A DNA stretch of 64,000 nucleotides, taken from IMG/VR virus record IMGVR_UViG_3300029305_005484; one strand, given 5' to 3'. The notes beneath the pieces are model-generated. The model saw nothing but the letters and a program-made list of their open reading frames with translations, had not been told where the DNA came from and made no database searches. The stretch is from a virus (lineage: Duplodnaviria > Caudoviricetes). Below are positions 257-57,140 of this stretch, piece by piece; the first letter of the stretch is position 1, and each line of letters starts with the position of its first letter. The translations under genes were made by a program, and so were the position numbers.

Positions 257-338
257 GAACCAATTTTGTTAAGTTAACTTTCTCTAGTTATCGGTAATTT
301 ACGATGTTTACAGAAATCTTACTTAACAAAACTGCAAC
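257..338 (+). repeat. 82-bp palindromic cassette-leader repeat, copy R1
   Basis: GAACCAATTTTGTTAAGTTAACTTTCTCTAGTTATCG-N14-TTACAGAAATCTTACTTAACAAAACTGCAAC; 9 copies in window. Confidence 0.97.
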
Positions 339-656
339 CAACAAGAAATAATACCTAATTTAATGATAAGTAAATCAACAGATGGGACAGTATATACAAC
401 TAGTACTACTGGTGTTACTGGCGCTATACCATATAATGCAAATTTTGCATTACTAAGAATATGGAATGGTTATGATGTATATCAAGGAACAACATTTATA
501 CCTTTAAGATGGATGGATGATAGTACTATTAATCATACTTTTAGAGTAGAGTATAATGGTGGAGTTGGAGAAATAGTTATAAACCCAAATACAAAAAGGT
601 ATACCCTTAAACGTATTACTGAAGGAACGTTTCCTGTATTAGTATCATTTTATTAA
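327..656 (+). CDS. Cassette C1: start-less putative tail-fibre tip module (109 aa)
   Basis: Open from CAA after the repeat's TAA: QNCNQQEIIPNLMISKS...VLVSFY*; the internal ATG at 363 has no RBS; beta-rich. Confidence 0.7.
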   Translation, partial: QNCNQQEIIPNLMISKSTDGTVYTTSTTGVTGAIPYNANFALLRIWNGYDVYQGTTFIPLRWMDDSTINHTFRVEYNGGVGEIVINPNTKRYTLKRITEGTFPVLVSFY

Positions 657-696
657 AGATAAAAATATGAGTGGATAAGGTGGTATAAGAGGGGTG

Positions 697-778
697 GAAC
701 CAATTTTGTTAAGTTAACTTTCTCTAGTTATCGATAATTCACGAGAATTACAGAAAACTTACTTAACAAAACTGCAAC
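697..778 (+). repeat. 82-bp repeat, copy R2
   Basis: Matches consensus; core ATAATTCACGAGAA. Confidence 0.97.
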
Positions 779-1141
779 CGAATTATAGAGTATCAAGAAC
801 AAGGTACAAATGGTGAATGGGGGTATGTTAAATATGAAAATGGTCTAGCATACTGCTATTCAAGATCTGATATTCAATTTGATACATCTAATAGAGTAAA
901 TGCTTGGGCTGATATGTTTGTAGTTAGTAAGAGAATAGAAATGCCTATAACATTTTATACACGTCCTGTAGTCAGTGCTAGTTGTGATTGGCATTATTCA
1001 GACCTAGTTCAAGCTGATTGTACTCACTATTCTAATATGATAGAATTAAGATATTTTGGTAGCTGGAATTCAATGGGTGGAGATGATACTGAATCTGTTA
1101 TATTAGCCGTTAGTTTATTAGCAATAGGAAGGTGGAAATAA
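767..1141 (+). CDS. Cassette C2: start-less tail-fibre C-terminal (gp53-like) domain (124 aa)
   Basis: QNCNRIIEYQEQGTNGEWGYVKYENGLAYC...MPITFYTRPVV...LLAIGRWK*; the GYVKY-x-NG, P-x-x-F-x-x-x-P and AIGRWK motifs are typical of tail-fibre tips. Confidence 0.85.
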   Translation, partial: QNCNRIIEYQEQGTNGEWGYVKYENGLAYCYSRSDIQFDTSNRVNAWADMFVVSKRIEMPITFYTRPVVSASCDWHYSDLVQADCTHYSNMIELRYFGSWNSMGGDDTESVILAVSLLAIGRWK

Positions 1142-1183
1142 AAATAAATGGAGATGTAGAAAAATCTACATCTCCATTTATTT
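1142..1183. terminator. Bidirectional intrinsic terminator
   Basis: AAATAAATGGAGATGTAGA-aaaa-TCTACATCTCCATTTATTT between convergent C2 and thyA. Confidence 0.85.
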
Positions 1184-2187
1184 TATACGGCTACAGGAAA
1201 ATCAACTTTTGACATACTCTTGTAGTTGTCAACATGAATATCTTCAATAACAGTTTTAAAGAAATCTGTATTCCCCTCATCAATTCTGATTGATGGTTCA
1301 CATTCATAAACCTCTACAAAATTAAATTCAGGATCCACTTCCAATGTTGTATCAATAACACCTTTGATTGATTTAAATCTTGCATTATTGATTACATTCA
1401 TTGGATTTTTCATTTCTTCATCTGATAATTCTACAGAAGATCTTTCATTTACGATATTAATGAATTCTTCATTTGTAGGAACTCTTCCTAACTCATCTGT
1501 AAGAATACCAATTGCAAGAAGAACCTGATATTGTTTTAACATCTGGTTACACCCATCAAATTGATTTTCATAAATATATGCATCTGCAGCAACAAATGTT
1601 AAGATTCCTGGTTTTACACCGAGATGACGAGCAAATAATTTGTTAAGAACTGTGTATTGGAATACATTAAATACTCCACCAACTAACAAGTCACATGAAC
1701 GGCTTGTTACAAGTACATTCAACTGACCATCTACAATATCCCAAACTGATGTATATACACATGGTGTAATAGCCATCTCTGGTAAATCTGCATTATTCCA
1801 TAAGTCAATAACAGCTCGTCTTGTTGAAGAATCACGTGCTAAATCATTTAACACACGATTAACTTGATCATATTCTTTAATCTGGTATCCATATGTTTTT
1901 GCAACGATACCATTTTCATCTGCCCAGTCATCCCAGATATGTGGTCTAAGATCATGGATATTATTTGATCCATCTCTGAAAATCCAGAATGCTTCTTCAA
2001 CAGATGATTTCCAAAATGTTTTCTTTGATTTCAAGATTGGACATTCTTCAGCACAATCTACTCCTAAGATCATATGTGATCTTCTTTTTGTAGCAACTCC
2101 TGTTCTTTCATTTTTTTGATAAAAGCCATTTTGCATAATATCAAAAACATAATTCATGAAATTGCTTTCATAGCGTGAAACTGCCAT
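1183..2187 (-). CDS. thyA: Thymidylate synthase (ThyA type) with C-terminal insertion
   Basis: ERTG, IWDDWAD, YGYQ, STRR, catalytic PC, RSCD and FN motifs; C-terminal PVAV; RBS AGGAGG. Confidence 0.92.
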   Translation of the reverse strand: MAVSRYESNFMNYVFDIMQNGFYQKNERTGVATKRRSHMILGVDCAEECPILKSKKTFWKSSVEEAFWIFRDGSNNIHDLRPHIWDDWADENGIVAKTYGYQIKEYDQVNRVLNDLARDSSTRRAVIDLWNNADLPEMAITPCVYTSVWDIVDGQLNVLVTSRSCDLLVGGVFNVFQYTVLNKLFARHLGVKPGILTFVAADAYIYENQFDGCNQMLKQYQVLLAIGILTDELGRVPTNEEFINIVNERSSVELSDEEMKNPMNVINNARFKSIKGVIDTTLEVDPEFNFVEVYECEPSIRIDEGNTDFFKTVIEDIHVDNYKSMSKVDFPVAV

Positions 2188-2273
2188 GATAATTTCCTCC
2201 TTATTAAATAAAATTTTTAAGATTAATATTTTGTAAAGTAATAAATTAAATGTAAAACAGAGAAAATTTATGA

Positions 2274-2282
2274 ATATATTAT
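2274..2282 (+). promoter_or_regulatory. Early-type promoter motif ATATATTAT (representative; also 11489 and 50808 on +, and 5635, 11021, 12751, 14369, 20231, 38839, 45501, 49045, 56639 on -)
   Basis: Same 9-mer, mostly about 15-45 nt upstream of start codons of non-structural genes; resembles the phiKZ early motif TATATTAC. Confidence 0.65.
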
Positions 2283-2317
2283 AAATATGAATAAAAGAAA
2301 AAGAGAGGTACTAGATT

Positions 2318-2416
2318 ATGCAAAATTTAAGAGGTCAAAAAATGATTATTGTTAGAAGGGAGGATGAAGAAGAGGTTTACTCAATCGAAGAATCAACCTC
2401 CGTTATTATAGAATAG
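2318..2416 (+). CDS. Small 32-aa hypothetical protein
   Basis: Promoter motif, RBS GAGAGG, MQNLRGQKMIIVRREDEEEVYSIEESTSVIIE*, then terminator at 2423-2462. Confidence 0.5.
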   Translation: MQNLRGQKMIIVRREDEEEVYSIEESTSVIIE

Positions 2417-2460
2417 AAAATGAATAAACCTTACTGAATAAAATCAGTAAGGTTTATTTT

Positions 2461-3102
2461 TTACATGTCTGCAGAGATTACAGCCTCTTCTGTACTAACT
2501 GACTCAACAACTGAATTTTCGTTGACAAATTGATTATCAGGTATAGTAACCGGTGTTTCTTCCTGTACTTCAGTTGTTACAGTTTCTGCGATTTGTTCGC
2601 TAACTTTCTGTTCCTGCTCGGCATGTTTTTTGCTTGATACTTCTTCACGAATTCTTCTTCTTTCTTGTCTAGAAAGTTTTCTATATTCTTCTGCAGTTAA
2701 ACCTGCATCTCTTAAGAATAATTGAAATTCGTCAAGTTTTTCTTCTTGTTCATCAGTAGATTTTTCATCTTCTTTTTCAACAAGAATTGTTTTTTCAGGT
2801 TCACTAATAACCTGCTGTTTTTCAGGTTCAACTACTTTTTCAACCTGATTATTTGCAGGTGTTTTAACATCTCCACGATTGAATGGAGACTTTTGACATG
2901 TCAAAACTGTTAATTGAACCTTTTCATTTGGATTTGATGGATTAATCTCTTTTACGATTTTTCCATTTTTAACTAATTTTATAATCTGTGGTGTTGTCAA
3001 CTTACAATTATAAACTGGACCAACTACAAAATTTAATTCTGCTAATGGTCCATTTGTAAGTATATCACATCTTCTAAAATTACTATTCAACACTGTTGAC
3101 AT
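2461..3102 (-). CDS. Hypothetical protein with acidic low-complexity C-half
   Basis: ORF with RBS AGGAGG; co-oriented with 3117-3422. Confidence 0.7.
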   Translation of the reverse strand: MSTVLNSNFRRCDILTNGPLAELNFVVGPVYNCKLTTPQIIKLVKNGKIVKEINPSNPNEKVQLTVLTCQKSPFNRGDVKTPANNQVEKVVEPEKQQVISEPEKTILVEKEDEKSTDEQEEKLDEFQLFLRDAGLTAEEYRKLSRQERRRIREEVSSKKHAEQEQKVSEQIAETVTTEVQEETPVTIPDNQFVNENSVVESVSTEEAVISADM

Positions 3103-3116
3103 TTTACGTTTCCTCC

Positions 3117-3422
3117 TTATTCGGCATTTGTTACAACACCAACGATATCGTCAATGTCAATATCTTCATCATCACAAGCAAGGATTCTTGCAATTTCCTC
3201 TTTTTCGAGTTCTGCATCATCAGGGAGTTCTCTAAGAAGTTCTTCAAGCTCTTCATTAGTCAATTCTCCTTCTGCAGATTCCATCATTAATCCAGAAGTT
3301 GCTGTTTCAACTAATTCGTCTGCAACAGATTCTGTAACCTCTGAACTAATTCTTTCTATTTTACCAATAGCTCTTGCTCGTTCTTCTGCTATGGATTGTA
3401 ATCCAGAATTAATAATTCCCAT
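3117..3422 (-). CDS. Acidic small protein, probably head/scaffold-associated
   Basis: Late motif at 3451-3463; VTES and MMES motifs as in the head cluster. Confidence 0.55.
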   Translation of the reverse strand: MGIINSGLQSIAEERARAIGKIERISSEVTESVADELVETATSGLMMESAEGELTNEELEELLRELPDDAELEKEEIARILACDDEDIDIDDIVGVVTNAE

Positions 3423-3485
3423 AATTTTATATTCCTTTCTTTTAGAATATTTAGAGTAATGTTTTCTTAGTATATAAATCTATAA

Positions 3486-4079
3486 TTATTTAACGGATAT
3501 AGTTAAATACATAGTCGTATTATCCCAATGTGTCGTATAACCTTTACAATCCAAATTATTAACAATTGAACTACTTCTACTTTCAGCATATGCATAAGGA
3601 AGTGTACTAACAACATGTTCAAACCCCGTAAATGTTATAGGATGTCCGGATTTAAGAACTGATAAATTTGAATTTAAAAATTCAGATACTTCACGTTCTA
3701 ATCTTTCATCTGATCTCATAATAGATTTTATTGTATTAGGAGAATGAATTACTAGTCTGCTGATTGGTTTTGCATCATTCGCTGGACTATAAAATACATC
3801 AGGTAATGCAAAAAGGTTTTTATTGAAAATTGAATAAATTATTGTGTCGACTGTGTACTGTAGTTGTTTTAAATCTACTGAGTCATCTACTTCATATTCA
3901 TAGAAACTCACTGGTTCGTCATTCGTCAATGTATCTGCAAGAATGCTTTCTAAAAATTTATGTACTATACTAGATGCCAAATCATCTTTTTTTGATATAT
4001 TGGTTGTTGTTTTAACCTGTTCTTCAGCATTATATGATGCAAGATCTGACGAATTTTGTATACCGTTAAATTGCAACAT
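3486..4079 (-). CDS. Hypothetical protein
   Basis: 197-aa ORF with RBS. Confidence 0.7.
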   Translation of the reverse strand: MLQFNGIQNSSDLASYNAEEQVKTTTNISKKDDLASSIVHKFLESILADTLTNDEPVSFYEYEVDDSVDLKQLQYTVDTIIYSIFNKNLFALPDVFYSPANDAKPISRLVIHSPNTIKSIMRSDERLEREVSEFLNSNLSVLKSGHPITFTGFEHVVSTLPYAYAESRSSSIVNNLDCKGYTTHWDNTTMYLTISVK

Positions 4080-4191
4080 AATACAAACCGCCTTTCTTTT
4101 TATTTATATTTTATATAAATGTGCAAGAAAAATATGTAAAAAAATAAGAAGGATATGTAAAAATCCTTCTTATTTCAATCATACAGATTAT

Positions 4192-4917
4192 CTATTCATC
4201 AGAAGATGTTTGACATGTATTGTAATCGTATATTGTAAGTCTATTTATTATATCATACTGATTATCATATGACGGACCTACAATTGTATTATGCTCTATA
4301 TTAGAACCGAAACTTTCATCCATATACCCATCAAATATAGAAAATGATGTAAACAAATCATCTGGATAAATGATATCATATACTGCTAATTGATACTTAC
4401 ACCATTCTAAATTTAATATACTTAAAAATTTTTGAATCTTGTTATAATCATCATAATTTCTACCATATGGATATTCAAGGTTATCTAAGAAATATGCTAA
4501 TAAGAAATTTTGACTAGGTTCTGATGAAAATACATAATCAAATATAAAATTTAAAACCTGTTTATAATTTTTAGGATCTAATCTATTTCCTTTACACATT
4601 TCTAAAAAGTTACTATGGGATACGGGTTCTAAAAGCATATATGCATAAAATAACTTAACTCTATCAAGTTCAATTTTAGTTAGTTGATTTTTTAATGATT
4701 CTTTTTTAAAATTGATATAATTTACATTTGGATATAAATATTTATGTTGTTCCCAGATTTTTGGTGTTATTCCTGAGTTAGGATCTAAAATATAAATTCC
4801 ATAACACGTATCGAATATCTTATTATCTCTTAATTCGAATATATTACTAAATCCATCATAATAAAAGTCTCTAAATCCTGTTATATTTTCACATGTCAAT
4901 ATATTAACACTATCCAT
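4192..4917 (-). CDS. Hypothetical protein
   Basis: Start moved to the ATG after GGAGG (MDSVNIL...). Confidence 0.7.
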   Translation of the reverse strand: MDSVNILTCENITGFRDFYYDGFSNIFELRDNKIFDTCYGIYILDPNSGITPKIWEQHKYLYPNVNYINFKKESLKNQLTKIELDRVKLFYAYMLLEPVSHSNFLEMCKGNRLDPKNYKQVLNFIFDYVFSSEPSQNFLLAYFLDNLEYPYGRNYDDYNKIQKFLSILNLEWCKYQLAVYDIIYPDDLFTSFSIFDGYMDESFGSNIEHNTIVGPSYDNQYDIINRLTIYDYNTCQTSSDE

Positions 4918-4928
4918 ATTAACACCTC

Positions 4929-5618
4929 CTAACCATATGTCCATTCATAAATTGTATCTGTTTCATAGTCATTATATAATAAATTAGTTGGAATAAATAT
5001 TGCTAGCTCGTTATATAACCAATCTATTATATAATTTCTATAAGTATAAAATTCTTTTTCTGTAAATTTTCTATTGAATAAAACCTTAAATCCAATTACA
5101 AATTCATCTTTTTCCAAAATATCTTCAAACCAATGAATATTTGTATCTGATAATAACATACCAATATGCCAGTCTGCAGTAGTAAAATTATCAATTGCAT
5201 ATGAGTATCTATTAAAATATGATAGAATTTCATTTTTATTCACTTTAAAATTTTCGGCATATTCTTTCATATCAAAAGAATCAGTTTCACTAAATCTAAT
5301 CGATGTAAAAGCTATTAGTGATATTATAGATTTTAAAATATCATGATACTCACTTGGAAATTTTAAGAATAAATTTTCGTATAAAAAGTAAGCATTTGAA
5401 TGATGCTCAAAACTTGTTATATTAAGCAATAATTCTATCTTTGTTGGATCACCATCTGGTTGTTCAGTATATTCTTTTACAGGATCAAATGAATCATCAT
5501 CAAATAGTTGAATTTTATTTTCAGTATAAGTATCAAAATCTGGTTCTTGTGATATCCCTAATATATCTAATGAATGTAAGCTATCATAATAAAATGGATG
5601 ATCTACCATTAATTTCAC
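4929..5618 (-). CDS. Hypothetical protein
   Basis: 229-aa ORF downstream of early motif 5635; exact start uncertain. Confidence 0.65.
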   Translation of the reverse strand: MKLMVDHPFYYDSLHSLDILGISQEPDFDTYTENKIQLFDDDSFDPVKEYTEQPDGDPTKIELLLNITSFEHHSNAYFLYENLFLKFPSEYHDILKSIISLIAFTSIRFSETDSFDMKEYAENFKVNKNEILSYFNRYSYAIDNFTTADWHIGMLLSDTNIHWFEDILEKDEFVIGFKVLFNRKFTEKEFYTYRNYIIDWLYNELAIFIPTNLLYNDYETDTIYEWTYG

Positions 5619-5669
5619 CTTCTTTCATATTAAAATAATATATTAATACAAAAGATAAACTAGTTGACG

Positions 5670-6038
5670 TTAATCAACTAGTTTATAAATTCTTTCTAAT
5701 GCTTCTTCAGGTGTATGACCATCATATTTAGGTGCTTTGTCAAGTTCTTTAACATCAAATTTATCCCAATAAGGATCAATATCATAATGATATGTAGCTT
5801 GCCCTTCTGGTGTTTCAATACCTACAATAAACATACCATCATACATATCACCTGTATCATGAAGTTTTGATTTCCATGCTTTATCTTTAAACATTTTACA
5901 AATAGTAGCAAATAATAAAGCTCTATGATGATATAATTCATTGAAAGTATGATATCCATCAGAAAATTCACCTAAACTATTATCACGTTTAAAAACATCA
6001 TACAACTCTAGCATTTTCTTTGAAATATTAATTGACAT
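5670..6038 (-). CDS. WDGH-like phage protein
   Basis: SDGYHTFNELYHHR, WKSKLH, TPEGQATYHY and YDGHT motifs. Confidence 0.7.
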   Translation of the reverse strand: MSINISKKMLELYDVFKRDNSLGEFSDGYHTFNELYHHRALLFATICKMFKDKAWKSKLHDTGDMYDGMFIVGIETPEGQATYHYDIDPYWDKFDVKELDKAPKYDGHTPEEALERIYKLVD

Positions 6039-6087
6039 AGTTAATATCTCCTTTCATTTTATAATTATAGTTTCGAATATTCTAAAA

Positions 6088-8230: not shown

Positions 8231-8270
8231 AAGATACCTAGTAGATTTTTCTACTAGGTATCTTATTTTT
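8231..8270. terminator. Bidirectional terminator
   Basis: AAGATACCTAGTAGA-tttt-TCTACTAGGTATCTT; related stems at 184, 21150, 48060 and 57842. Confidence 0.85.
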
Positions 8271-10002
8271 ATTTTTTGAATAAACCAGCAAGAATTTTAA
8301 CTAATGCTTTGAAAATATTAATGATAAATTTAGCAATTAAATTTGCTTTTTCATCATCTGGTTCTTCTGGTGTTGGTTCAGGAATATTTTCTTCCTCTTC
8401 ATCAGAAGGTTCATTTTCAACAACATCGTTTTCATTATCTACTACTGGATCCATTTCTGGAGTTTCTTCAACTTTATCATTTTCTGTAAATTCTTGATTT
8501 TCAGATTCTTCATCTTTATCATCAATATCAAACTCATATAATTTATAAGTTTCAATAATATTTACAACTTTTGATACATATGCACTATCTGTAGCATATC
8601 CACCATCTTTAATAAGTTGAATTGCTTTGGTATAATCAGTTTCACCGATTAAACCTTCATAACGGTATACACTACCTTTCTTAGCACCACAAAGATATGC
8701 ACTATGGTCAGCAATTGATTCTGCTACTGTAGCATATGCTCTAAAGTCAGAATAATATGGAACCATTTGTCCATTTACTTCTTCATTTGACCATTTAGCA
8801 TAAATCTCTCCAGTCCATGCACTTTGCCACGTATTACCAGAAAGTGTAGATTTCATACCGAATAAGTTGTTTGCTTTAAGAGACAATTCAGATTGTCCCC
8901 ATGCAGATTCTAATATAGCCTGAGCAATTGTAACTGATGCAAGAATACCAGTATTAGCCATATCAGTCTTAGCTAAAGAACCAACATATTCAATGAATTG
9001 CTCTTTAGTAAATCCTTTAAGAGGACTAATATCAACTGCTTCAGGAGCTTCTGGTTTTTGAATCACTTCTTCTTTCGGTTCTTCAACCTTAGGTTCTTCT
9101 GTAGCTGGAGGAGTTGTAGTTTCTACTTTACTTGTATAAACTGCATTTCCATCTTCATCAAATACAGAATATCCTGGGTTTTGATCACAAATATTCTTAG
9201 CACTTTCAAGATTTCTGTAAGCACCCTTTTGGGAACCTGCATCAGCCCATGTTTTACGAATTCTGTAAATGATATCAGTCGTTGTAGAAGTTGTTGCTTT
9301 TGTATACACAACTTTACCAGATGCATCAAATACAGAATAACCTTCATTTTCATCACATTTCTTTTTAGCATTTTCTAGATTTGCATAAGCACCAAGTTGT
9401 GATTTAGCATCTTCCCATGTTTTACGAACACGATATAACTGTGAATTTTGATTTGTTGGTTGTTGAACAACTACATTTTGAACAAGTTCAACACCGAAAC
9501 ATTCCAAAATACCTTTAGCAATTTCATCCATTTTAGAATTGAAAATGCTTACATCTGTTGCATTTGAAATGAATCCAATTTCAATAAGTCTGTAGTTATA
9601 TCCCTTATTAGCAGCTCTCTTTGGATTTGCTAAATTGGTTCTACCAACAATAGTAGAACTACGTCCTGGGAGAATTCCTGATAAGAATGCAGCTAATTTT
9701 TCATCATAGGCATCAGCTTTATAATTACCCCAAATAATAACATGAGCACCTCTAGCAGATGAACTCGTACTACTATCCATATGGAATTCACATAATAACC
9801 AGTCTTTAGAAAGTGTCAAATTAGTAATTCCGTTATCTTTATAATAGTTTCTATTTTCTTCTGAAACCATTACGTTATCTCCACCAAGTGCTTTGCAACG
9901 TTTTGCCAATGTACGAACTCTTTCATACTCTTGGTAACCATTTCCACAAGCACCAGGGTCACCAGCACCATGACCGGTGATAATGAATAATTTATTACTC
10001 AT
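8269..10002 (-). CDS. Endolysin: Amidase_3 + two cell-wall-binding repeats + GH73 glucosaminidase + acidic tail
   Basis: GHG-x-x-DPGA, EFHMD, LIEIGFISN; two YR(V/I)RKTW-x-DA-x-SQ-x-GAY-x-NLE repeats; IAQAILESAWG, NNLFGMK, GYATD. Confidence 0.92.
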   Translation of the reverse strand: MSNKLFIITGHGAGDPGACGNGYQEYERVRTLAKRCKALGGDNVMVSEENRNYYKDNGITNLTLSKDWLLCEFHMDSSTSSSARGAHVIIWGNYKADAYDEKLAAFLSGILPGRSSTIVGRTNLANPKRAANKGYNYRLIEIGFISNATDVSIFNSKMDEIAKGILECFGVELVQNVVVQQPTNQNSQLYRVRKTWEDAKSQLGAYANLENAKKKCDENEGYSVFDASGKVVYTKATTSTTTDIIYRIRKTWADAGSQKGAYRNLESAKNICDQNPGYSVFDEDGNAVYTSKVETTTPPATEEPKVEEPKEEVIQKPEAPEAVDISPLKGFTKEQFIEYVGSLAKTDMANTGILASVTIAQAILESAWGQSELSLKANNLFGMKSTLSGNTWQSAWTGEIYAKWSNEEVNGQMVPYYSDFRAYATVAESIADHSAYLCGAKKGSVYRYEGLIGETDYTKAIQLIKDGGYATDSAYVSKVVNIIETYKLYEFDIDDKDEESENQEFTENDKVEETPEMDPVVDNENDVVENEPSDEEEENIPEPTPEEPDDEKANLIAKFIINIFKALVKILAGLFKK

Positions 10003-10952: not shown

Positions 10953-11075
10953 TCTAATTCCCTCCTTAAAATCACTATTATGTCATCTATATTTTTTATT
11001 AAAATCTTTATTTCAAATATATAATATATCATTTACATATGTATATTTACTTTTTTGAGAGAGCTTGGGGATGGG

Positions 11076-11157
11076 GAACCAATTTTGTTAAGTTAACTTT
11101 CTCTAGTTATCGAGATTTTCCTTAGATTACAGAAAACTTACTTAACAAAACTGCAAC
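11076..11157 (+). repeat. 82-bp repeat, copy R3
   Basis: Identical to R9, 45.6 kb away; core AGATTTTCCTTAGA. Confidence 0.97.
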
Positions 11158-11448
11158 CAAGAAGAGATCATTACAGGTTTACATAATACAAGTAATGTAG
11201 ATATATTTATTGTAAATGCTGATATAAATTTTACAGATGGTAAAGTATACTATCAAAGTCCTGAAGTTATAACACATTTAACAGGACGTTCGATTGCTGG
11301 AGCAGTATGTACAGTACATGCTCAACTTGTTTCTCCTAGAATAACTGTAACTGATGGAAGAGGAGAAAATAATACAGTTTATTTATATTTTGATGCTAAT
11401 CATTCTGGTGTTTTTAATGTTAGTATTGTTTATTTTGTTTGGAGATAA
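11146..11448 (+). CDS. Cassette C3: start-less module (100 aa, no Met), missed by ORF track
   Basis: QNCNQEEIITGLHNTSNVDIFIVNADINFTDGKVYY...NTVYLYFDANHSGVFNVSIVYFVWR*. Confidence 0.75.
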   Translation, partial: QNCNQEEIITGLHNTSNVDIFIVNADINFTDGKVYYQSPEVITHLTGRSIAGAVCTVHAQLVSPRITVTDGRGENNTVYLYFDANHSGVFNVSIVYFVWR

Positions 11449-14336: not shown

Positions 14337-14396
14337 AATATTTCCTCCATATTATTTTTATCACTAAAATAATATATCATTATTGAATAAAGTAGG

Positions 14397-14478
14397 GAAC
14401 CAATTTTGTTAAGTTAAATTTCTCTAGTTATCGATAATTTCCTTTGATTACAGAAATCTTACTTAACAAAACTGCAAC
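14397..14478 (+). repeat. 82-bp repeat, copy R4
   Basis: Core ATAATTTCCTTTGA, same as R8. Confidence 0.97.
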
Positions 14479-14799
14479 CAACAACTTTATACACATGAAA
14501 TTTTAATAAATAATCAAACATCATATTTTTTCAGAATTGGAAATTTTGTAGAATTACAATTGAGATATATCGGTAATGCATCTTCTCTTACATTTAGTGA
14601 TATACCAGATGGTTATAAACCTAAATTCATGGTTTTTGAACCTGTATTTATTTATGATGGATCTATTATATGTGGGTACTGTAGAATACTGGTACAAAAT
14701 AATACTATTACTGTTTATGGGAAAAATACTGGTTCTGATATATATGGTGAATTTCATACAACTATAATGTATTATACAGAAGATGATTATTCTGTATAA
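14467..14799 (+). CDS. Cassette C4: start-less receptor-binding head-like module (110 aa)
   Basis: QNCNQQLYTHE...FFRIGNFVELQLRY...DIPDGYKP...; R-x-GN-x-V and P-x-GY(R/K)P motifs of tail-fibre/RBP C-termini. Confidence 0.85.
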   Translation, partial: QNCNQQLYTHEILINNQTSYFFRIGNFVELQLRYIGNASSLTFSDIPDGYKPKFMVFEPVFIYDGSIICGYCRILVQNNTITVYGKNTGSDIYGEFHTTIMYYTEDDYSV

Positions 14800-15032: not shown

Positions 15033-15117
15033 CTCGCTTTATTTATTATTGGTGATTAATATATTTGAACTCCTTACTATATAAATAATGTATCATTGAA
15101 CTTAAATTGATGGGTGG

Positions 15118-15199
15118 GAACCAATTTTGTTAAGTTAACTTTCTCTAGTTATCGGTAATTTACGATGTTTACAGAAATCTTACTTAACAAAACTGCAAT
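15118..15199 (+). repeat. 82-bp repeat, copy R5
   Basis: Identical to R1 except terminal AAT versus AAC. Confidence 0.97.
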
Positions 15200-15538
15200 C
15201 AACAAGAGATGTTATTGGATATAGAGAGTGCTATATCATATAATTCTGAAATTATAACAGATTATGGAGAAATTACAAATATTGGTATTTGGCATTATGA
15301 AAGAGGTGTAGTCAGTTGTACACCATCTAATGTTGATGGAAATCCATGGCATGGTTTTGAAATAACATTTAAGCAACCTTTTATCTGTATTCCATGTGTT
15401 ACAATAAATCAACACTCCTATTTTTCAAATGAAAATGTAATGGTGCAATCAGTTTCAAGAGGTGGAATGACGTTTTTTATAAGAACTATGACAAATGGAT
15501 TTGATTACAGAGTAATATGGAATGCATTCGGTATTTAG
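15188..15538 (+). CDS. Cassette C5: H-type-lectin/gp53-like tip module (116 aa)
   Basis: QNCNQQEMLLDIE...ERG...ITFKQPFICIPCV...VIWNAFGI*. Confidence 0.85.
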   Translation, partial: QNCNQQEMLLDIESAISYNSEIITDYGEITNIGIWHYERGVVSCTPSNVDGNPWHGFEITFKQPFICIPCVTINQHSYFSNENVMVQSVSRGGMTFFIRTMTNGFDYRVIWNAFGI

Positions 15539-15562
15539 TAAGTAGGTGATAGAGGGAGAGGG

Positions 15563-15644
15563 GAACCAATTTTATTAAGTTAAATTTCTCTAGTTATCGA
15601 TAATTACCGATGTTTATAGAAATCTTACTTAACAAAACTGCAAC
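15563..15644 (+). repeat. 82-bp repeat, copy R6
   Basis: Most diverged copy (TTTTATTAAG, TTATAG) but same length. Confidence 0.95.
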
Positions 15645-15995
15645 CAAGAAGAGATGTTAATAGATATAGAGCATGCAATATCATGGAATTATACATTTGG
15701 TGAATTAGAAAGTGAGATGGTTATTAATTTCGGAATATCTCATATAGAAAGGGGACATGTGTATTGGACAGCTAATACACAATCAGATCTTGATGCCCAT
15801 GCATGGTATCCATTTGAAATAAGTTTTAAACAACCATTTAATACAACCCCTGTTGTATCATTTTTGAATTTAACAGGATTTTCTAATGAAAATATTTGGA
15901 TTACTGCATTAGATAATGCACATATGATATTTTCTGTTAGAGTCCAATCTATAGGATTTAGATATGGTATATTATGGCAAGCTATAGGTGTATAA
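15633..15995 (+). CDS. Cassette C6: H-type-lectin/gp53-like tip module (120 aa), paralog of C5
   Basis: QNCNQEEMLIDIE...ERG...ISFKQPFNTTPVV...ILWQAIGV*. Confidence 0.85.
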   Translation, partial: QNCNQEEMLIDIEHAISWNYTFGELESEMVINFGISHIERGHVYWTANTQSDLDAHAWYPFEISFKQPFNTTPVVSFLNLTGFSNENIWITALDNAHMIFSVRVQSIGFRYGILWQAIGV

Positions 15996-20200: not shown

Positions 20201-20266
20201 TTAATTTATACCTCCTTTTTGTATATAAAAATAATATATCATTATTGAATAAAGTAAGGAGCTGAG

Positions 20267-20348
20267 GAACCAATTTTGTTAAGTTAAATTTCTCTAGTTA
20301 TCGATAATTTACGAAGATTACAGAAATCTTACTTAACAAAACTGCAAC
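20267..20348 (+). repeat. 82-bp repeat, copy R7
   Basis: Core ATAATTTACGAAGA. Confidence 0.97.
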
Positions 20349-20678
20349 CAACAAGTTTGGGAAGTATATAGAGACTCATTTATAAGTAAAACTAATGACG
20401 CTAAAGATTATTGTAGATTTTATGTTGCATTTGGACATAGTTATAATGGATATATACGTTCAACAAGTATTAGAATACCTTTTACACATGATGAAGTTAA
20501 CTTAGAATTAGTAGCAATCAATATACCTGGATCCGGTCCAGTTGAACTTGATTATAAATATATAGGACTTGATGAAGTTGGTGGATTCTATATTTATTGT
20601 GATACTGATGGTGCTAATGGGACTGGAGCTATAATAAATAATGTATGTGGTATTGGTATTAGAATAACATGGAAATAG
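20337..20678 (+). CDS. Cassette C7: start-less module (113 aa, no Met), missed by ORF track
   Basis: QNCNQQVWEVYRDSFISKTNDAKDYCRFYVAFG...NNVCGIGIRITWK*. Confidence 0.75.
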   Translation, partial: QNCNQQVWEVYRDSFISKTNDAKDYCRFYVAFGHSYNGYIRSTSIRIPFTHDEVNLELVAINIPGSGPVELDYKYIGLDEVGGFYIYCDTDGANGTGAIINNVCGIGIRITWK

Positions 20679-20687
20679 GAGGGGGAG

Positions 20688-20769
20688 GAACCAATTTTGT
20701 TAAGTTAACTTTCGCTAGTTATCGATAATTTCCTTTGATTACAGAAATCTTACTTAACAAAACTGCAAC
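20688..20769 (+). repeat. 82-bp repeat, copy R8
   Basis: Starts 9 nt after the C7 stop codon. Confidence 0.97.
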
Positions 20770-21141
20770 CAACAAGAACTGTTAGAAAATGTAGCAGACA
20801 TAAATATATTCCACCCATCTTTATATGCGGGTTGGATAAATCTAGGTAATAAGGTTGAATATTGTAAACTTGGAAATATTGTTTTTGTAAGAGGGAATTC
20901 ATTAGGTACAGTTACTATTACTAATGTCTCAACTGAATATACACGTCTTGGAACATTACCGGAAAATTATAGACCAACTAGTGGATTTGTAACAATCGGT
21001 ACAGCACGTAGTATATCTGGTGGATACATACAAATTATGATAGATTACAATGGTAATATTGATGCTGTTGCATTAGGAACAGGTTCAACATCAAGTTACT
21101 GGGGATTTGCAACATCATTCCCTGTATCCATATCATATTAG
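20758..21141 (+). CDS. Cassette C8: start-less RBP head-like module (127 aa), missed by ORF track
   Basis: QNCNQQELLENV...GW...VEYCKLGNIVFVRG...LGTLPENYRPT...SFPVSISY*. Confidence 0.88.
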   Translation, partial: QNCNQQELLENVADINIFHPSLYAGWINLGNKVEYCKLGNIVFVRGNSLGTVTITNVSTEYTRLGTLPENYRPTSGFVTIGTARSISGGYIQIMIDYNGNIDAVALGTGSTSSYWGFATSFPVSISY

Positions 21142-51158: not shown

Positions 51159-51605
51159 ATGAAGTATTATCTTATATATCTTAAACCTAATACAGAACTT
51201 TATGGATTCACATCAGAAAAGGATTATTTTGAAACATTTATGCTTCAAAGGAACTCAGAAAAGTTTTTAGTAAAAAAAGAAAAAATAACTGGTGAAGAAG
51301 AAAAAAGATTTCTTTATTTAAATCATAATAAAATGATTAAACCATATCCTTATCAACATAATACAGGTGATAAAGAGTATACTATGTTAATGGCTACTGC
51401 TGATGAAGATAATAGACTAGATATGGAAGTTGAAAAAATGAATACTATGGTTGTTGATATAGAATGTATGAGAAATGCTATTCCATTTAAAGATAAATAT
51501 GAATTATCTATTGATAATCTTACTGATATTTATGATGAGAATGGTCATATATTAATAGATTCTTTATCATTATTTATTGATTTAAATAAAGAAACTTTTA
51601 TTTGA
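51159..51605 (+). CDS. Hypothetical protein
   Basis: ORF coupled to the upstream gene. Confidence 0.7.
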   Translation: MKYYLIYLKPNTELYGFTSEKDYFETFMLQRNSEKFLVKKEKITGEEEKRFLYLNHNKMIKPYPYQHNTGDKEYTMLMATADEDNRLDMEVEKMNTMVVDIECMRNAIPFKDKYELSIDNLTDIYDENGHILIDSLSLFIDLNKETFI

Positions 51606-51658
51606 TTATATATATATATTGAAAATAAAGTTCTAAACCACACTCAATTAAGTAAATT

Positions 51659-53782
51659 ATGAAAGGACTAGAGAATATGAGCAGTACAGAAACATCTTAT
51701 CCTATTCCTGAAATTAATTCAGTGGATGATTTAAGAGAATTAACTCAAAAATGTTATACTTTAGAGTATTTCATGGCAACTGAAGAAATCTATGAAGATT
51801 TCTTTGAAAAGATGTATGCTATGATTAAAGGATGTATTGAAAAGAAGGATTGCAGAGAGTATCCTATTACATTCAAATTTTATAAAGATGATGAAAAGAC
51901 TTACACAATGCAATTAAGACATTTTATTGTAAATCTTATTTTACTAGAACCTTTCGTTCATGTAAATACTATTAAGTTTTTGAATGAACGTTATGTAATG
52001 GACTTTGATAAGTTCATGTTAGTTCCTGAGTACGATTTAGATTATTGGATTAATAATAGAATCATTATAGTACTCAGAAATTTCAATGTAAGAGGAATTA
52101 CGATTAATAAATCAATTTCAAAACTTTGTAATAGATTGAGAAATATTTCATTAGATTTCTCGTTAATTATGAATCTTAATTTCTCATATTTCACATTTAC
52201 AGAGATGTATCAGAACAACCCTAGAATTAGAGAAATTATGGAATGTAAATTCGATGATTCTATGCAGCCAAATGATATTGAAGATATGATTGATAAACTT
52301 CTTAAGGAAGAAGTTGATATTTATAAGAATACACCTAATAATCCAATAGGTACAATTCTTAAATCACAAGCAGGTATCAAGATTAAACAGTTTGGTGAAT
52401 TTACAGTTGCACAAGGATTAAAACCTAGCCTTGATGGTGTTATTATGCCTATAGCAATTGAAAATTCCACATTGCTTGGTGGTCTTGATAGACCTTCGTA
52501 TAAATATATTGATGCGGCTGCAGCAAGAAAATCTCTTATTCTAAATAAGACAGTTATGGGTGTTGCTGGTAACTTTGGTAAGTTAACTCTTCAATTAGCA
52601 AAGACGTTGACATTATCAAAAACTGTTACTGATTGTGATACAAAGCATCTTATTACTATACATATTAAAGATAAAAAGATGCTTAAGAAATTCAATAATC
52701 GTTATTATCGTATGGATGAAAATGATGAATTGAAATTATTAGATGCTGAAACAGATACACATCTAATTGGAAAAACTGTACAGTTCCGTTCACCAGTTAC
52801 ATGTGCACTTGGGGATCAAGTATGTGCTAAGTGCTTTGGTAGAACTGCAGGTCTTAACTATGACATTGCAGATGGTGTTGCTGGTTTTGAATCAGAAGAA
52901 ATCACAAAGGAACTTGAACAGAATGTATTATCTTCAAAACATCTTCTTACAACTAAGTCAGAAGTTCTCAAATTTAATGATGCTTTTGATAAGTATTTTA
53001 CATTAAGTTCTGGAGAAGTATATCCAATAGTTGAAGAGAATGATGCTGTTGAAGAGATTAATGACTATGCGATTTATATTAATCCAAGTACTATAGAGAA
53101 AGTAGATTCAATGGATGATGAATCAAGTTATAATACATTTATTACTGGTGGAGAATTCTTTGTAGTTAATTTAGAAACTGGTGAAAGAGAATCTATCAAA
53201 CTTGAAAATGAAGATAAAGAAATCTTTATCTGTGATGAAACTATCGAAATCATGAGAAAAGGAAGAGGATATATCAAGTTCAAAGATTTATCAGACGATA
53301 TAAAGATATTTGAAATGAATATCTTAAACAATGAGCTTACAAAACCTCTTTATGATATGATGGCTTTATTAAACAGAAATAGAAAAGAGGGTGAACCTCA
53401 AACTGTAGATGAAGTAACTCAAAGATTCATTGAACTTCATGTTATCTCAGGAATTAAAGCATCAAGTTTAGCAGGTGAATGTATTATTAATAGATTAGTA
53501 AGGTCTAATATTAATACATATGAAAGACCGGACTTCACACAAACTAATCTTGAACCATATACAATCATCACCATTAGAAAAGCACTTGAAGATAATAAAT
53601 CTCCAGGTCTTGGATTATCAGTTCAATATTTGAAACGTCAGTTATTAAGTGATGAAATTATCACTGAAAGATCTGGAACTTCATATATTGACCCATTGCT
53701 ACAAGCAAAGGTTCCTAACTTAAGTGAAATTTATGGAACTGGAAATATTGGTACAAGAAGAGTACCTAAAGAAGTAGAATAA
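51659..53782 (+). CDS. Phage RNA polymerase beta' C-terminal subunit
   Basis: Bridge-helix-like ARKSLILNK...AGNFGK, DCDT, Zn site RSPVTC...VCAKCFG, trigger-loop-like EQNVLSSKH. Confidence 0.88.
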   Translation: MKGLENMSSTETSYPIPEINSVDDLRELTQKCYTLEYFMATEEIYEDFFEKMYAMIKGCIEKKDCREYPITFKFYKDDEKTYTMQLRHFIVNLILLEPFVHVNTIKFLNERYVMDFDKFMLVPEYDLDYWINNRIIIVLRNFNVRGITINKSISKLCNRLRNISLDFSLIMNLNFSYFTFTEMYQNNPRIREIMECKFDDSMQPNDIEDMIDKLLKEEVDIYKNTPNNPIGTILKSQAGIKIKQFGEFTVAQGLKPSLDGVIMPIAIENSTLLGGLDRPSYKYIDAAAARKSLILNKTVMGVAGNFGKLTLQLAKTLTLSKTVTDCDTKHLITIHIKDKKMLKKFNNRYYRMDENDELKLLDAETDTHLIGKTVQFRSPVTCALGDQVCAKCFGRTAGLNYDIADGVAGFESEEITKELEQNVLSSKHLLTTKSEVLKFNDAFDKYFTLSSGEVYPIVEENDAVEEINDYAIYINPSTIEKVDSMDDESSYNTFITGGEFFVVNLETGERESIKLENEDKEIFICDETIEIMRKGRGYIKFKDLSDDIKIFEMNILNNELTKPLYDMMALLNRNRKEGEPQTVDEVTQRFIELHVISGIKASSLAGECIINRLVRSNINTYERPDFTQTNLEPYTIITIRKALEDNKSPGLGLSVQYLKRQLLSDEIITERSGTSYIDPLLQAKVPNLSEIYGTGNIGTRRVPKEVE

Positions 53783-53842
53783 TTGAATTCGGATGGGTTT
53801 ATTACTCATCCGAATTTATTTTTCTTATTTTGGAGGTTAAAA

Positions 53843-55165
53843 ATGAAAACTAAATTTACTTATATAAAAGAAGCAATAATAAATACTATGAAAAAAAGAG
53901 ATGTACTATTTCAAGTATTATCATCTCATTGGGCAAGTATTGTAACTTCAACTATTATTGGTACATTTGATGTTGATACAATTTATTTTATATCTTGTAT
54001 CATTCCATTGATTCTATTACTGATAAATATATGCATATCATATAATGTAATAAAGAATGATGCTAAGAATAAAAATAATGGAAAGTTAAAGAATGGAACA
54101 TATATAACATTCGATGAAATTGGGTTTTCATCATCACGGATTCATTCAAAAGTAAAAGAAAACAATGATCAAAAATTATTCTATCTTATGGCTATTGATT
54201 TATTACCATATTTTACACATGAAGAAATTCATGCTATTCATAGGGATTTTATGAAAGTAATAGCAGGATTATTTTATGAAAGACCTGTAGATATTGCAAC
54301 TTTCAAAAAATTTAATTTATTCTTAGCTCAATTTTCTGATTTTAAAAATAAAAGAATTTCAGATTATAGAAAACGTGATTTAGAATTTGAAAAATGTTCT
54401 GGATTGACTGGTTGGATCAATAAATGTATTTATGAAGTTGGGTCAGCACCTTCTATAATGGCTGATATAATATTCTTTTCATTTTATGATGAAATTAAAT
54501 CAATATTTTCAGATGATAATAAATATATAACGGATAATACCAAATATAATTATTTCAAACATCTGTTTATGAAAACAAATGATGAAATTACAAGAAATGT
54601 TATAAAAGAAGCATATACAAGAGTTTGCTGGTCGTCATATGGAAAAATTGAAAAATATATAAAGAATGGATTGGATTTTATTGAAGAGTTGACTGTTCTT
54701 ATCCATCCAGATATACCATATATATACACTAATATTCATGGTAATGGTAAAAAAGAATTTTATACAGCATCAAAATTTTATAATCATTTAATAAATGATA
54801 ATGAGCAATGGTATACTATAGCTGATAAAGATTCACATGTTAAATCAATGGAAGCATCATTTGAATGTAGTAAAGAGATATTATTCCCTATAACAAAAGA
54901 ACCTAATAAAATTACTGATCCTGATGGAGAACTTTTAAAATATGATTTTAAAAGTGAAATTGGTTGTCGAATGACTGATAAGAAATTTTACTTTGATGAT
55001 TCATATTCTATTGATGTTACTGATGTTAATAAAATAGCTATGTTTATTCTTGATAATGAGTATGCTGAAGTATTACCTACTAAGATTTTATTTTATATTG
55101 CAGCATATACTTACGTATGTAAACAATTCAGAGATATGTTAATAGAATATTTTAGAGAGGTATAA
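53843..55165 (+). CDS. Hypothetical protein with N-terminal TM segment(s)
   Basis: RBS GGAGG; hydrophobic IYFISCIIPLILLLINICI. Confidence 0.7.
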   Translation: MKTKFTYIKEAIINTMKKRDVLFQVLSSHWASIVTSTIIGTFDVDTIYFISCIIPLILLLINICISYNVIKNDAKNKNNGKLKNGTYITFDEIGFSSSRIHSKVKENNDQKLFYLMAIDLLPYFTHEEIHAIHRDFMKVIAGLFYERPVDIATFKKFNLFLAQFSDFKNKRISDYRKRDLEFEKCSGLTGWINKCIYEVGSAPSIMADIIFFSFYDEIKSIFSDDNKYITDNTKYNYFKHLFMKTNDEITRNVIKEAYTRVCWSSYGKIEKYIKNGLDFIEELTVLIHPDIPYIYTNIHGNGKKEFYTASKFYNHLINDNEQWYTIADKDSHVKSMEASFECSKEILFPITKEPNKITDPDGELLKYDFKSEIGCRMTDKKFYFDDSYSIDVTDVNKIAMFILDNEYAEVLPTKILFYIAAYTYVCKQFRDMLIEYFREV

Positions 55166-55168
55166 AAA

Positions 55169-56308
55169 ATGAATATTAATGTCAATAAATACAAAAATGA
55201 ATTTAGTGAAATTAAAAGTATTATAAAGGATATAGAAGACTCTAATGAATTATTTACAGCTCTTAGAGAATATCCTTCAATTCATCATAAAAACTTTTGT
55301 GGTAATTTTATATCCTTTCTAATACCAATATTTAAACCTTATGAATATAAATATTCTTTAAAAGAGGTTATACAAATAACTGGAATTAAAAATTCAGTAC
55401 TATATCCTCTTGATATTCGTGATCATATGGTAGATGGTTGTAAATTTGATAAAGTACTTGTTAAAAAATCATTTTTAAATGCTTTGGGTTTATTAGATAA
55501 ACATACAGAAATAGTACAGAGTGATATTGGTGATTATTTAATGAAAACTTTACCATTTAACCAATGGACAACTAATTTTATACTATACACATTTTCTGAT
55601 ACATTAGAATATAATGATTCCAATACATCTACAGATTATGAATTATATAATTTTTATGGGAAAACAAATGAAGAAATTTATAAATATATTTTAAATTTCT
55701 TCGATAATACAAATTACAAAAAGATTGATCAATTGAATAGATTGTATGAATTAAATACATCAATTGATCTAGATAGAGTCAATACTTCTATAGAGATGAT
55801 ATTGAAAGATCTTGACTTTCTTATATTCTATATATGTAATAATACTACACTAATGATTACAGATCCTGTATATATTTTTGAAGATAGTTTTACAGGATTA
55901 TATGATTTATATAAATCATATATGAATACACATGAAAATCTAATTTTAAGTAATTCAGATGTCTTTAAAAAACCATTCTTTAATATGAATAATAGATGTG
56001 TTGTTAGAGAAAAAACTGAGAGAAGCTCTAAAGATTTATGGACAGATGATATTAAATTTAAAATATCACTATCAAATATAAATATTTACGATTTAAATAT
56101 TTATAAATCATATCTTCAAAATTTCACAGGACGTAAATATGTAGAAGCTATTGATTGTCGCATAGTTTTCTCAGTAGTTATTTTTACACACTTCTATTAT
56201 ATGGGGTTAAAATTATTAGAAAAACTCTACAATGATAAAGATATTATTGGTAAAATCAAATTTAATTCAATGGATATCAATAGTATATATGAAAGATTAA
56301 TAGATTAA
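55169..56308 (+). CDS. Hypothetical protein
   Basis: 379-aa ORF. Confidence 0.7.
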   Translation: MNINVNKYKNEFSEIKSIIKDIEDSNELFTALREYPSIHHKNFCGNFISFLIPIFKPYEYKYSLKEVIQITGIKNSVLYPLDIRDHMVDGCKFDKVLVKKSFLNALGLLDKHTEIVQSDIGDYLMKTLPFNQWTTNFILYTFSDTLEYNDSNTSTDYELYNFYGKTNEEIYKYILNFFDNTNYKKIDQLNRLYELNTSIDLDRVNTSIEMILKDLDFLIFYICNNTTLMITDPVYIFEDSFTGLYDLYKSYMNTHENLILSNSDVFKKPFFNMNNRCVVREKTERSSKDLWTDDIKFKISLSNINIYDLNIYKSYLQNFTGRKYVEAIDCRIVFSVVIFTHFYYMGLKLLEKLYNDKDIIGKIKFNSMDINSIYERLID

Positions 56309-56395
56309 AGAAAAGGTGTAAAAACCTTTTCTTTTTTTATATTTAAAATAATCAAAATAACAAAAAAATAAAGGAGATTATTAAATCCCTTTAAA

Positions 56396-56566
56396 TCAAA
56401 TACCATAGGTCTTTTTATATGATTGACCTAGATAATTGATTGTATTGGTGAGTTTATTAGAATTATATCCAAATAGTTCCATTGTACTGAAATCTATTTC
56501 GGAGTGTGAATGATACAAATCTTCACTTTTTCTGATAAACTCAGAGTTTTTGTTATTATCTATCAT
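56396..56566 (-). CDS. 56-aa protein, paralog of 14844-15032 (not in ORF track)
   Basis: MIDNNKNSEFIRKSEDLYHSHSEIDFSTMELFGYNSNKLTNTINYLGQSYKKTYGI*; RBS GAGG. Confidence 0.7.
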   Translation of the reverse strand: MIDNNKNSEFIRKSEDLYHSHSEIDFSTMELFGYNSNKLTNTINYLGQSYKKTYGI

Positions 56567-56698
56567 AACATTTCACCTCGCCTTCTTTTATATTTAGATA
56601 GGCAAATTCCATTTATTCTTAATCATATTATCTATATAATAATATATCAATAATTTTCCTATATTTTTACTATATTATTTACAAGTGAAGAGAGAGGG

Positions 56699-56780
56699 GA
56701 ACCAATTTTGTTAAGTTAACTTTCTCTAGTTATCGAGATTTTCCTTAGATTACAGAAAACTTACTTAACAAAACTGCAAC
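56699..56780 (+). repeat. 82-bp repeat, copy R9
   Basis: Identical to R3. Confidence 0.97.
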
Positions 56781-57140
56781 CAACAAGAATTATTAGATAA
56801 TTATTTACCTTATTATGCATATAATCCCCATAATGATCCTAATAGAAATAATAATAATGAACATGGGATATGTAAAATTGGTAAGGTTGTATTTTCATAT
56901 GGAACATCTCAAACATTAGGTTGGGAATTTGATAGTGTTTTAAATGGATATACACGTGAAATAATATTTGAATATCCTTTTACAATTGAACCTGCAGTTT
57001 TTTGCTCAGCATATTATCCATCAGGTTCTCCAGCTAAAACATCAATTTTATATAAAAATAATTCAAAGATTAAGTTATACTGCTCATCTGGTGTACAAGG
57101 ATTATGGGTATATTGGTTAGCTATGTCATTTGCAGAGTAA
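56769..57140 (+). CDS. Cassette C9: start-less gp53-like tip module (123 aa), missed by ORF track
   Basis: QNCNQQELLDNY...GICKIGKVVFSYG...IIFEYPFTIEPAVF...VYWLAMSFAE*. Confidence 0.85.
   Translation, partial: QNCNQQELLDNYLPYYAYNPHNDPNRNNNNEHGICKIGKVVFSYGTSQTLGWEFDSVLNGYTREIIFEYPFTIEPAVFCSAYYPSGSPAKTSILYKNNSKIKLYCSSGVQGLWVYWLAMSFAE

Follow-up and report, generated by a model that had tools for sequence, protein, structure and literature searches.

A probable tail-fibre tip exchange system in a gut phage: start-less cassettes dispersed through the genome behind an 84-nt palindromic element

The stretch of phage DNA analyzed here (64,000 nucleotides (nt), hereafter the window) contains nine copies of an 84-nt palindromic element, each leading in the same register into an open reading frame (ORF) that lacks a start of its own, which raises the question of how, and for which protein, such frames could be used. 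The window is the minus strand of G000:59335-123334, where G000 denotes the virus record IMGVR_UViG_3300029305_005484, a 275,512-bp genome of an animal-gut phage with direct terminal repeats and a G+C content of 28.5%. A sequence-only reading of the window had proposed that the nine frames serve as silent 3' ends, interchangeable with one another, of a constant fibre gene that lies elsewhere. This proposal was borne out by an acceptor gene outside the window, G000:186101-187528, and by in-frame fusions of its constant part in other strains. We consider it quite probable that the nine units belong to a silent, genome-wide library serving this one tail-fibre gene by conservative cassette exchange at the level of DNA.

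DNA nearly identical to G000 is present in faecal, bovine-gut and mouse-gut metagenomes, and strain comparisons were made with assemblies that are 90-99% identical. These comprised the metagenome contigs JAEIGA01 (88, 145 and 36 kb; 90-95% identical to G000, with many elements; hereafter JAEIGA), a locus on an ENA scaffold encoding the fibre homologue P0003 (L046), a locus encoding the homologue P0002 (L047), and a bovine-gut sequencing run (X7). No DNA match was found among the INPHARED phages, no other IMG/VR record has the element, and a search for related loci with the fibre protein as query found none. An 18-mer matched 44 metagenome entries, with real elements only in the JAEIGA01 contigs, and the distant fibre homologues L048-L051 (at most 57% identity) had no elements.

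The element, defined here as the 84 nt from GGAACC through GCAACC, was confirmed at the nine plus-strand sites reported by the sequence-only reading. The window copies are free of insertions and deletions and have constant arms around a variable centre, with positions 2-22 and 54-82 invariant or nearly so. In the whole of G000 there are 35 full copies, 13 on the plus strand and 22 on the minus strand, and the arms are invariant across 55 distinct elements of two strains, while the centre varies. A hairpin was predicted for the 84-nt element in all copies (−15 to −22 kcal/mol); its outer pairs never vary and its apical pairs are often broken among the 55 elements, and no compensatory changes were detected in the consensus fold. 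The 5' arm and the 11-nt 3' junction each contain AACC(AA), and the two occurrences form a direct repeat 78 nt apart.

All 35 copies open in the register TAA|CAA AAC TGC AAY into a start-less ORF of 90-276 codons. In the window all nine frames stay open for 100-127 codons, as first described, and the other two frames close within 6-29 codons; the probability that a random frame of the same composition stays open for 90 codons is about 4e-4. Ahead of the ORF, 34 of the 35 elements have a stop in all three frames, and a search in every frame across the 35 copies found no consistent upstream start codon. Methionine is wholly absent from 10 of the 35 cassette frames, and the absence of Met from C3 and C7 and its late position in C8 (only at residue 94) and C9 (only at residue 119) were also confirmed. 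The cassettes are dispersed singly or in pairs over G000:29.5-220 kb (~190 kb), and the three mini-arrays previously recognized in the window are present with spacings of 40 nt (C1-C2), 24 nt (C5-C6) and 9 nt (C7-C8).

Searching for the 3' end of the element outside the full copies led to a single place in the genome, within a fibre gene of 475 amino acids (aa) at G000:186101-187528 that has a normal ribosome-binding site and an ATG. The whole-genome search proposed for repeat and acceptor had in this way returned 35 copies and one fibre gene with the NCN junction. The fibre protein reads ...GYLLQNQIDEL-NCN-LNEF..., with 100 residues after NCN, and of the 12 nt that end the element, the DNA at this junction, TAAACTGCAACC, matches 11; no likeness to the element was detected further upstream of the junction. 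The 11-nt 3' end, AAACTGCAACC (Asn-Cys-Asn), is common to the fibre gene and all 35 cassettes in one register. The gene adjoining the fibre gene encodes a virion structural protein, and homologues of the fibre N-terminal part have phage-fibre Pfam domains; a PDB sequence search with the fibre protein gave no match.

A partial element, the 5' arm only, is located ~155 nt ahead of the fibre ATG. The DNA from the one element fragment to the other forms an expression module of 1310 bp, which contains the promoter region, the ribosome-binding site and fibre codons 1-375, and which is bounded by the element 5' arm GGAACCAATTTTGTTAAGT at its start and by the last 11 nt of the element at its end. In four strains the module begins and ends at exactly the same points and measures exactly 1310 nt. 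At its left end (G000:185923-185980; L034:2224-2281) the 5' arm is followed 32 nt later by a second copy of TTTTGTTAAGTAAAAT, and this second copy and the 5' arm could be extra recombinase-binding sites.

Comparison with other strains showed that the constant part of the fibre carries different tips. In an alignment of the fibre homologues, the constant parts were 96-100% identical up to ...QIDELNCN and were then followed by unrelated tips. Including the fusions described in the next paragraph, five tips in all are found on the one constant part, in frame every time and every time at the same 11 nt. P0003 continues with NCNHQIYYTKHETENG..., the tip of the silent cassette G000:185504, and BLAST of L046 on G000 resolved this locus into three blocks: the expression module (185924-187235), ending exactly with the 11-nt junction; the tip of cassette 185504 (185573-185947); and a full element that continues, on the opposite strand, into 124625-119148, a stretch with cassette 124623, the amidase gene, and then C1, C2 and thymidylate synthase from the start of the window. 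The tip of P0002 is absent from G000 and is found as a silent cassette in JAEIGA (L067). The L046 and L047 expression modules differ at only 8 of 1310 nt, yet their tips are different, and the exchange was therefore recent.

The constant part in JAEIGA continues in frame into the homologue of silent cassette 142833; the expression module is located at the 143-kb locus, inverted relative to G000, and tip 142833 keeps its own downstream flank. The tip expressed in G000 sits behind a full element in JAEIGA (L074). One X7 contig agrees with the constant part as far as the final base of the 11-nt junction and diverges from G000 beyond it, and in a second X7 contig the fibre tip of G000 is preceded by unlike sequence. 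Downstream, cassette 187565 is lacking. Misassembly is unlikely to have generated these fusions, because no assembler uses words as short as this junction and three independent assemblies are involved.

The 36 tips of G000 (35 silent and one expressed) make up ~5.6% of the genome and are all single copy, with pairwise identities of at most 43% at the aa level, in line with the earlier description of the cassettes as mostly unrelated. This bears on copy-type gene conversion, in which silent cassettes would be copied into the fibre site while the originals remain, as in pilS/pilE or vls. Silent start-less cassettes and a single expression site do resemble those systems, and a mechanism of this type or joining at the RNA level had been favored in the sequence-only reading. 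However, no tip occurs twice in G000, the expressed one included; in JAEIGA it is the module that sits at the resident locus of tip 142833, and not a copy of that tip that has moved to the fibre locus; flanking genome segments travel with the tips; and no reverse transcriptase is present. Copying is hardly credible as the mechanism here. Because each tip is single copy and the flanks move with the tips, the exchange appears to be conservative and reciprocal.

Between the strains, rearrangements extend well beyond the fibre gene, and in comparisons of G000 with L046 or JAEIGA every breakpoint coincides with an element. Comparison with relatives, as had been proposed, showed cassettes gained and lost in JAEIGA: the C7 tip is absent and its upstream context is joined to C8, C4 (L078) and C5 are absent at their place with C6 joined to the upstream context of C4, an extra C1-like cassette lies ahead of C3, and cassette 173979 is inserted ahead of tip 130673. 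A 3.7-kb segment (174.4-178.1 kb) flanked by two inverted elements is inverted in JAEIGA L067, and two long-range joins connect the upstream context of cassette 185504 to tip 195168 and the upstream context of cassette 191144 to C2 and thymidylate synthase. In each of three strains the expression module has another neighbour on its left, with the 5' arm as the point of joining in every case; crossovers must therefore occur in the 5' arm as well as in the 11-nt 3' junction. The earlier view that inversion is impossible and excision excluded does not hold for the whole genome, in which elements are found on both strands and both inversion and cassette gain or loss are seen between strains; that view had arisen because only plus-strand copies were visible in the window.

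These observations suggest a scheme in which the nine window units would be silent members of a genome-wide library that comprises 35 cassettes and, in addition, one expressed tip; all would be receptor-binding C-terminal domains for a single tail-fibre gene. The tip 3' of the AAACTGCAACC junction would be made as part of the fibre, and all other tips, behind the full element, would stay untranslated because the element has no start codon and stops in all frames. Conservative recombination at the two invariant ends of the element would reassort tips, expression module and intervening genome segments, with crossovers mapping to the 5' arm and the 11-nt 3' junction. Recombination between inverted copies would give inversion, and between direct copies 'tip plus element' units would be excised or inserted. 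The DNA examined was searched for an 'empty' site (3' arm, AACCAA, 5' arm) and for a free cassette site, and neither was found; record 18 of X7 is a tentative candidate for the former.

A device acting on RNA or in translation, whether ribosomal bypass (Cys UGU-UAA to UGC), splicing or trans-splicing, or initiation independent of a start codon, could in principle connect the cassettes to an upstream message. Several features invite this idea: a G-rich, Shine-Dalgarno-like tract precedes nearly every element (window 237-256 for copy 1), a conserved UUG lies 8 nt past it and begins a three-codon frame, UUG UUA AGU UAA, in the 5' arm, the predicted hairpin is stable, the UGU-UAA ... UGC pair is in frame as in T4 gene 60-type programmed bypass, and so is the AACCAA direct repeat. 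Unlike the T4 case, the frame that would be bypassed has no start in 17 of the 35 copies, no frame has a consistent upstream start, and one copy (C6) has UAU in place of UGU. The apical pairs of the hairpin are not kept while the outer pairs never vary, and an Rfam search gave no match in the window and only three ordinary group I introns in the rest of the genome, none near a cassette. Fusions at the DNA level already account for tip use, and we regard a device of this kind as very improbable. Three forms of the idea, namely ribosomal bypass, excision of an intron lying between the AACCAA repeats, and a split ribosome-binding site, were dropped, as about half of the copies yield no start codon.

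The question of what drives the exchange leads to the recombinases of the phage. The gene at G000:202143-203168 is the sole tyrosine recombinase gene of the genome and encodes an armless Xer-type protein, matching NCBIfam recomb_XerA_Arch with 238.8 bits (cut-off 220), Pfam Phage_integrase with E 4.8e-37, and Phage_int_SAM_4. It failed the integron-integrase model TIGR02249 (cut-off 265; 91.9 bits, split over two pieces) and the Fim-type invertase model. Among phage records, its nearest relatives come from Clostridium-group phages, where the genes are annotated as integrases, and from human-gut phage contigs that lack annotation; the gene is conserved in JAEIGA (L093). Searches of the genome for a serine recombinase (PF00239) and a reverse transcriptase (PF00078) gave no match, so that of the enzymes proposed for inspection by the sequence-only reading a tyrosine recombinase was recovered and these two were not. 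The invariant arms of 55 elements and the repeated use of the 11-nt junction fit protein recognition of a specific site, and we lean, with modest confidence, toward an exchange that is site-specific and catalyzed by the encoded recombinase. Next to the recombinase gene, G000:203225-204130 (L031:2426-3328, minus strand) encodes a protein of 300 aa with a coiled-coil-like stretch and a C-terminal DUF4376, a domain that is often present in phage fibre proteins.

Several observations weigh against a dedicated exchange system. Nothing links the recombinase to the elements: its gene is 15 kb from the fibre gene and 6-7 kb from the nearest cassette, and the enzyme could instead have a role in lysogeny or dimer resolution. 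The rearrangements all come from comparisons of strains and not from one population, where short-read contigs break at every element and within-sample variants are not readable; the markers in the variable centre are mosaic inside full elements, so that exact crossover points are not readable. Direct copies of the element flank essential genes, where recombination would be lethal, and a means of avoiding this was not seen; the same puzzle was noted for the Rin shufflon of Bifidobacterium prophages (PMC6109161). None of the nine window tips was seen in a fused form; for C8, this was sought among proteins longer than the cassette, of which none scored (weak evidence). The scheme does not account for the G-rich tract and the UUG frame, which may belong to the recombination site itself or have an unrelated role in translation.

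Some of these points are what passive mosaicism would give. Here the elements would be dispersed repeats with another role, selfish or regulatory, and rare homologous or microhomology exchanges would have been fixed by selection on host range; differences would be visible only between strains, gene conversion among repeats would leave mosaic centre markers, and no recombinase gene need adjoin the fibre gene or a cassette, as is the case. However, identity at the fibre-tip junction amounts to only 11-12 nt, yet five tips are joined there, always in frame, to constant parts with 96-99.4% identity. The invariance of the arms in 55 elements while the centre drifts points to recognition by a protein, and the expression module keeps its exact ends and its exact 1310 nt in four strains. 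We therefore consider passive mosaicism unlikely, and prefer conservative exchange of cassettes at the elements.

A stronger form of the preferred reading would be a programmed, high-frequency shufflon covering the whole genome, in which the Xer-like recombinase, acting on the two ends of the 84-bp palindrome, reassorts a mobile 1.3-kb module and 36 tips during infection. We put this forward tentatively, at somewhat less than even chances. If true, a single burst would release phages of as many as 36 host-range types, and large genome segments would keep changing their order and orientation with viability kept.

The cassette products were compared with known proteins to assess whether they resemble fibre tips. 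C2 matches the tail fiber family phrog_2712 at profile positions 592-699 of 700 (E 1e-9), C4 matches the C-terminal end of phrog_3971 (positions 222-314 of 331), and C8 matches phrog_3971 and phrog_3285 (minor tail protein), in both cases at the C-terminal end. Along its full length, C1 shares 31% identity with the fibre's own tip (P0001:370-475; E 2e-13), in an alignment that begins at NCN, and the 276-codon cassette at G000:191144 matches a tail-fibre family at positions 788-1040 of 1096. These matches support assignment of C1, C2, C4, C8 and the G000:191144 cassette as putative receptor-binding domains from the C-termini of tail fibres. The motif-based likeness first noted for the window thus stands for C2, C4 and C8. 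For C5 (a weak H_lectin match, E 0.0096, below the cut-off) and C9 (nearest Atlas clusters carrying Gp53-like_C, score 0.91) we have leads only; C9 is also 34% identical to cassette G000:187565. No outside match was found for C3, C6 and C7.

Switching of tail-fibre tips by DNA rearrangement is already known, and programmed inversions have repeatedly been found to target tail fibres (PMC9881135). Of the systems described, the Rin shufflon comes closest; in it, a XerD-like tyrosine invertase acts on a constant receptor-binding-protein gene and variable C-terminal genes at 11-bp asymmetric sites (PMC6109161). Both systems have a constant N-terminal gene, several start-less variable C-terminal genes with a short 11-bp crossover site before each, and an armless tyrosine recombinase of the Xer type, XerD-like in Rin and the putative enzyme here, and in both the variants were recognized by genome comparison. 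In Rin, however, a handful of variable genes occupy one locus flanked by the recombinase gene, whereas here 35 cassettes are spread over ~190 kb on both strands, the recombinase is 15 kb from the fibre gene, the crossover motif lies inside an 84-bp palindrome with invariant arms, and the constant part itself changes place. The earlier statement that no described phage system has this layout holds within the literature searched, in which we found neither a dispersed genome-wide library of such size nor such an 84-bp palindromic site, although systems of the same kind, as Rin shows, are known.

Other systems share individual features. Gin of Mu, Cin of P1 and Min of p15B likewise switch tail-fibre C-termini by site-specific inversion at the boundary between constant and variable parts within coding sequence, but they are serine invertases acting on one local invertible segment with 2-6 alternatives, in contrast to the 36 alternatives, genome-spanning rearrangements and lack of a serine recombinase seen here. 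The R64 shufflon (Rci, sfx, PilV) has a tyrosine recombinase, many short sites with one conserved arm and a constant gene that acquires alternative C-terminal adhesin segments. That system serves a plasmid-encoded pilus, occupies one cluster of 2 kb and rearranges by inversion alone, unlike the cassette excision and insertion and the long-range exchanges between strains observed in the phage.

Integrons (attI x attC) also have promoterless cassettes, cassette sites that are imperfect palindromes of about this size in which the ends are conserved and the centre varies, and a platform with a promoter that shares few bases with the cassette site; in both, the recombinase belongs to the Xer/IntI branch. 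The order 'fibre - new tip - element - old tip' is as integron-like insertion at the platform site would give, and by analogy with attC the hairpin could matter as folded DNA. GTTAAGT and ACTTAAC in the element fit integron core motifs, but in reverse order. Here, unlike in integrons, the recombinase fails the integron-integrase model, the sequence of the arms and not only their fold is conserved, the fusion is in frame into a structural gene, and no single array accompanies the recombinase gene.

A diversity-generating retroelement (DGR) differs in that it needs a reverse transcriptase, which is lacking in G000, and the tips are unrelated rather than point-mutated copies. As a separate observation, L049:9266-10414 is a reverse transcriptase gene 2 kb downstream of a fibre homologue (57% identical, no elements), and it may belong to a DGR, which would diversify this fibre family by another route. 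In vsa of Mycoplasma pulmonis (HvsR) and sap of Campylobacter fetus, an expression site with a promoter and 5' end is joined by DNA inversion to silent 3' bodies with neither promoter nor start codon; these are bacterial surface antigens in local clusters, with no 84-bp palindromic element.

Described tip-switching systems offer two to about seven alternatives at one small locus, and 36 distinct tips placed among essential genes would imply a far larger host-range repertoire for a single gut phage. The relocation of the constant fibre part between strains implies a lineage whose genome order is fluid at defined sites. There are also practical effects: short-read assemblies break or mis-join at the elements (the X7 short-read contigs break at every one), and gene callers skip the start-less cassettes or call truncated proteins from an internal Met. 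If the recombinase and the 84-bp site work as proposed, they would constitute a compact natural system for exchanging protein modules in frame.

Table 1. Positions of the element copies and tip cassettes in the window.
Feature	Window position	Strand	Remarks
Element copy 1	256..339	+	G000:123079, minus strand
Tip cassette C1	327..656	+	109 codons; paralogue of the tip now on the fibre gene
Element copy 2	696..779	+	
Tip cassette C2	767..1141	+	124 codons; followed by a terminator hairpin
Element copy 3	11075..11158	+	
Tip cassette C3	11146..11448	+	100 codons; no Met
Element copy 4	14396..14479	+	
Tip cassette C4	14467..14799	+	110 codons
Element copy 5	15117..15200	+	
Tip cassette C5	15188..15538	+	116 codons
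Element copy 6	15562..15645	+	one G>A change in the 5' arm
Tip cassette C6	15633..15995	+	120 codons; 43% identical to C5
Element copy 7	20266..20349	+	
Tip cassette C7	20337..20678	+	113 codons; no Met
Element copy 8	20687..20770	+	
Tip cassette C8	20758..21141	+	127 codons
Element copy 9	56698..56781	+	
Tip cassette C9	56769..57140	+	123 codons

Some members of the library are decaying, as in JAEIGA, where the cassettes at L094:1898 and L094:12324 (both minus strand) are shortened by early stops at 17 and 59 codons. Around the first mini-array of the window, an Amidase_3 gene lies directly ahead of the first base, and directly after C2 a minus-strand gene (window 1183-2187) encodes a thymidylate synthase of 334 aa, assigned from the Pfam match of its L046 orthologue.

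The three group I introns (RF00028, 80-87 bits) are located at G000:175331-175608 (minus), 176560-176867 (minus) and 237380-237686 (plus), corresponding to L040:12232-12509, L040:13461-13768 and L043:14581-14887. They lie between adjacent same-strand ORFs, and at least two phage genes are therefore split by self-splicing introns. ARAGORN found zero tRNA or tmRNA genes in the whole of G000, hence no suppressor tRNA. The window also contains repeats of other kinds: two 129-nt direct repeats at 9132-9428, 75% identical and 168 nt apart, fall inside a minus-strand ORF of 577 aa (8269-10002), and two tandem 84-nt coding repeats at 59474-59641, 81% identical, lie inside the ORF at 59018-59782, the product of which may be a repeat-containing structural protein.

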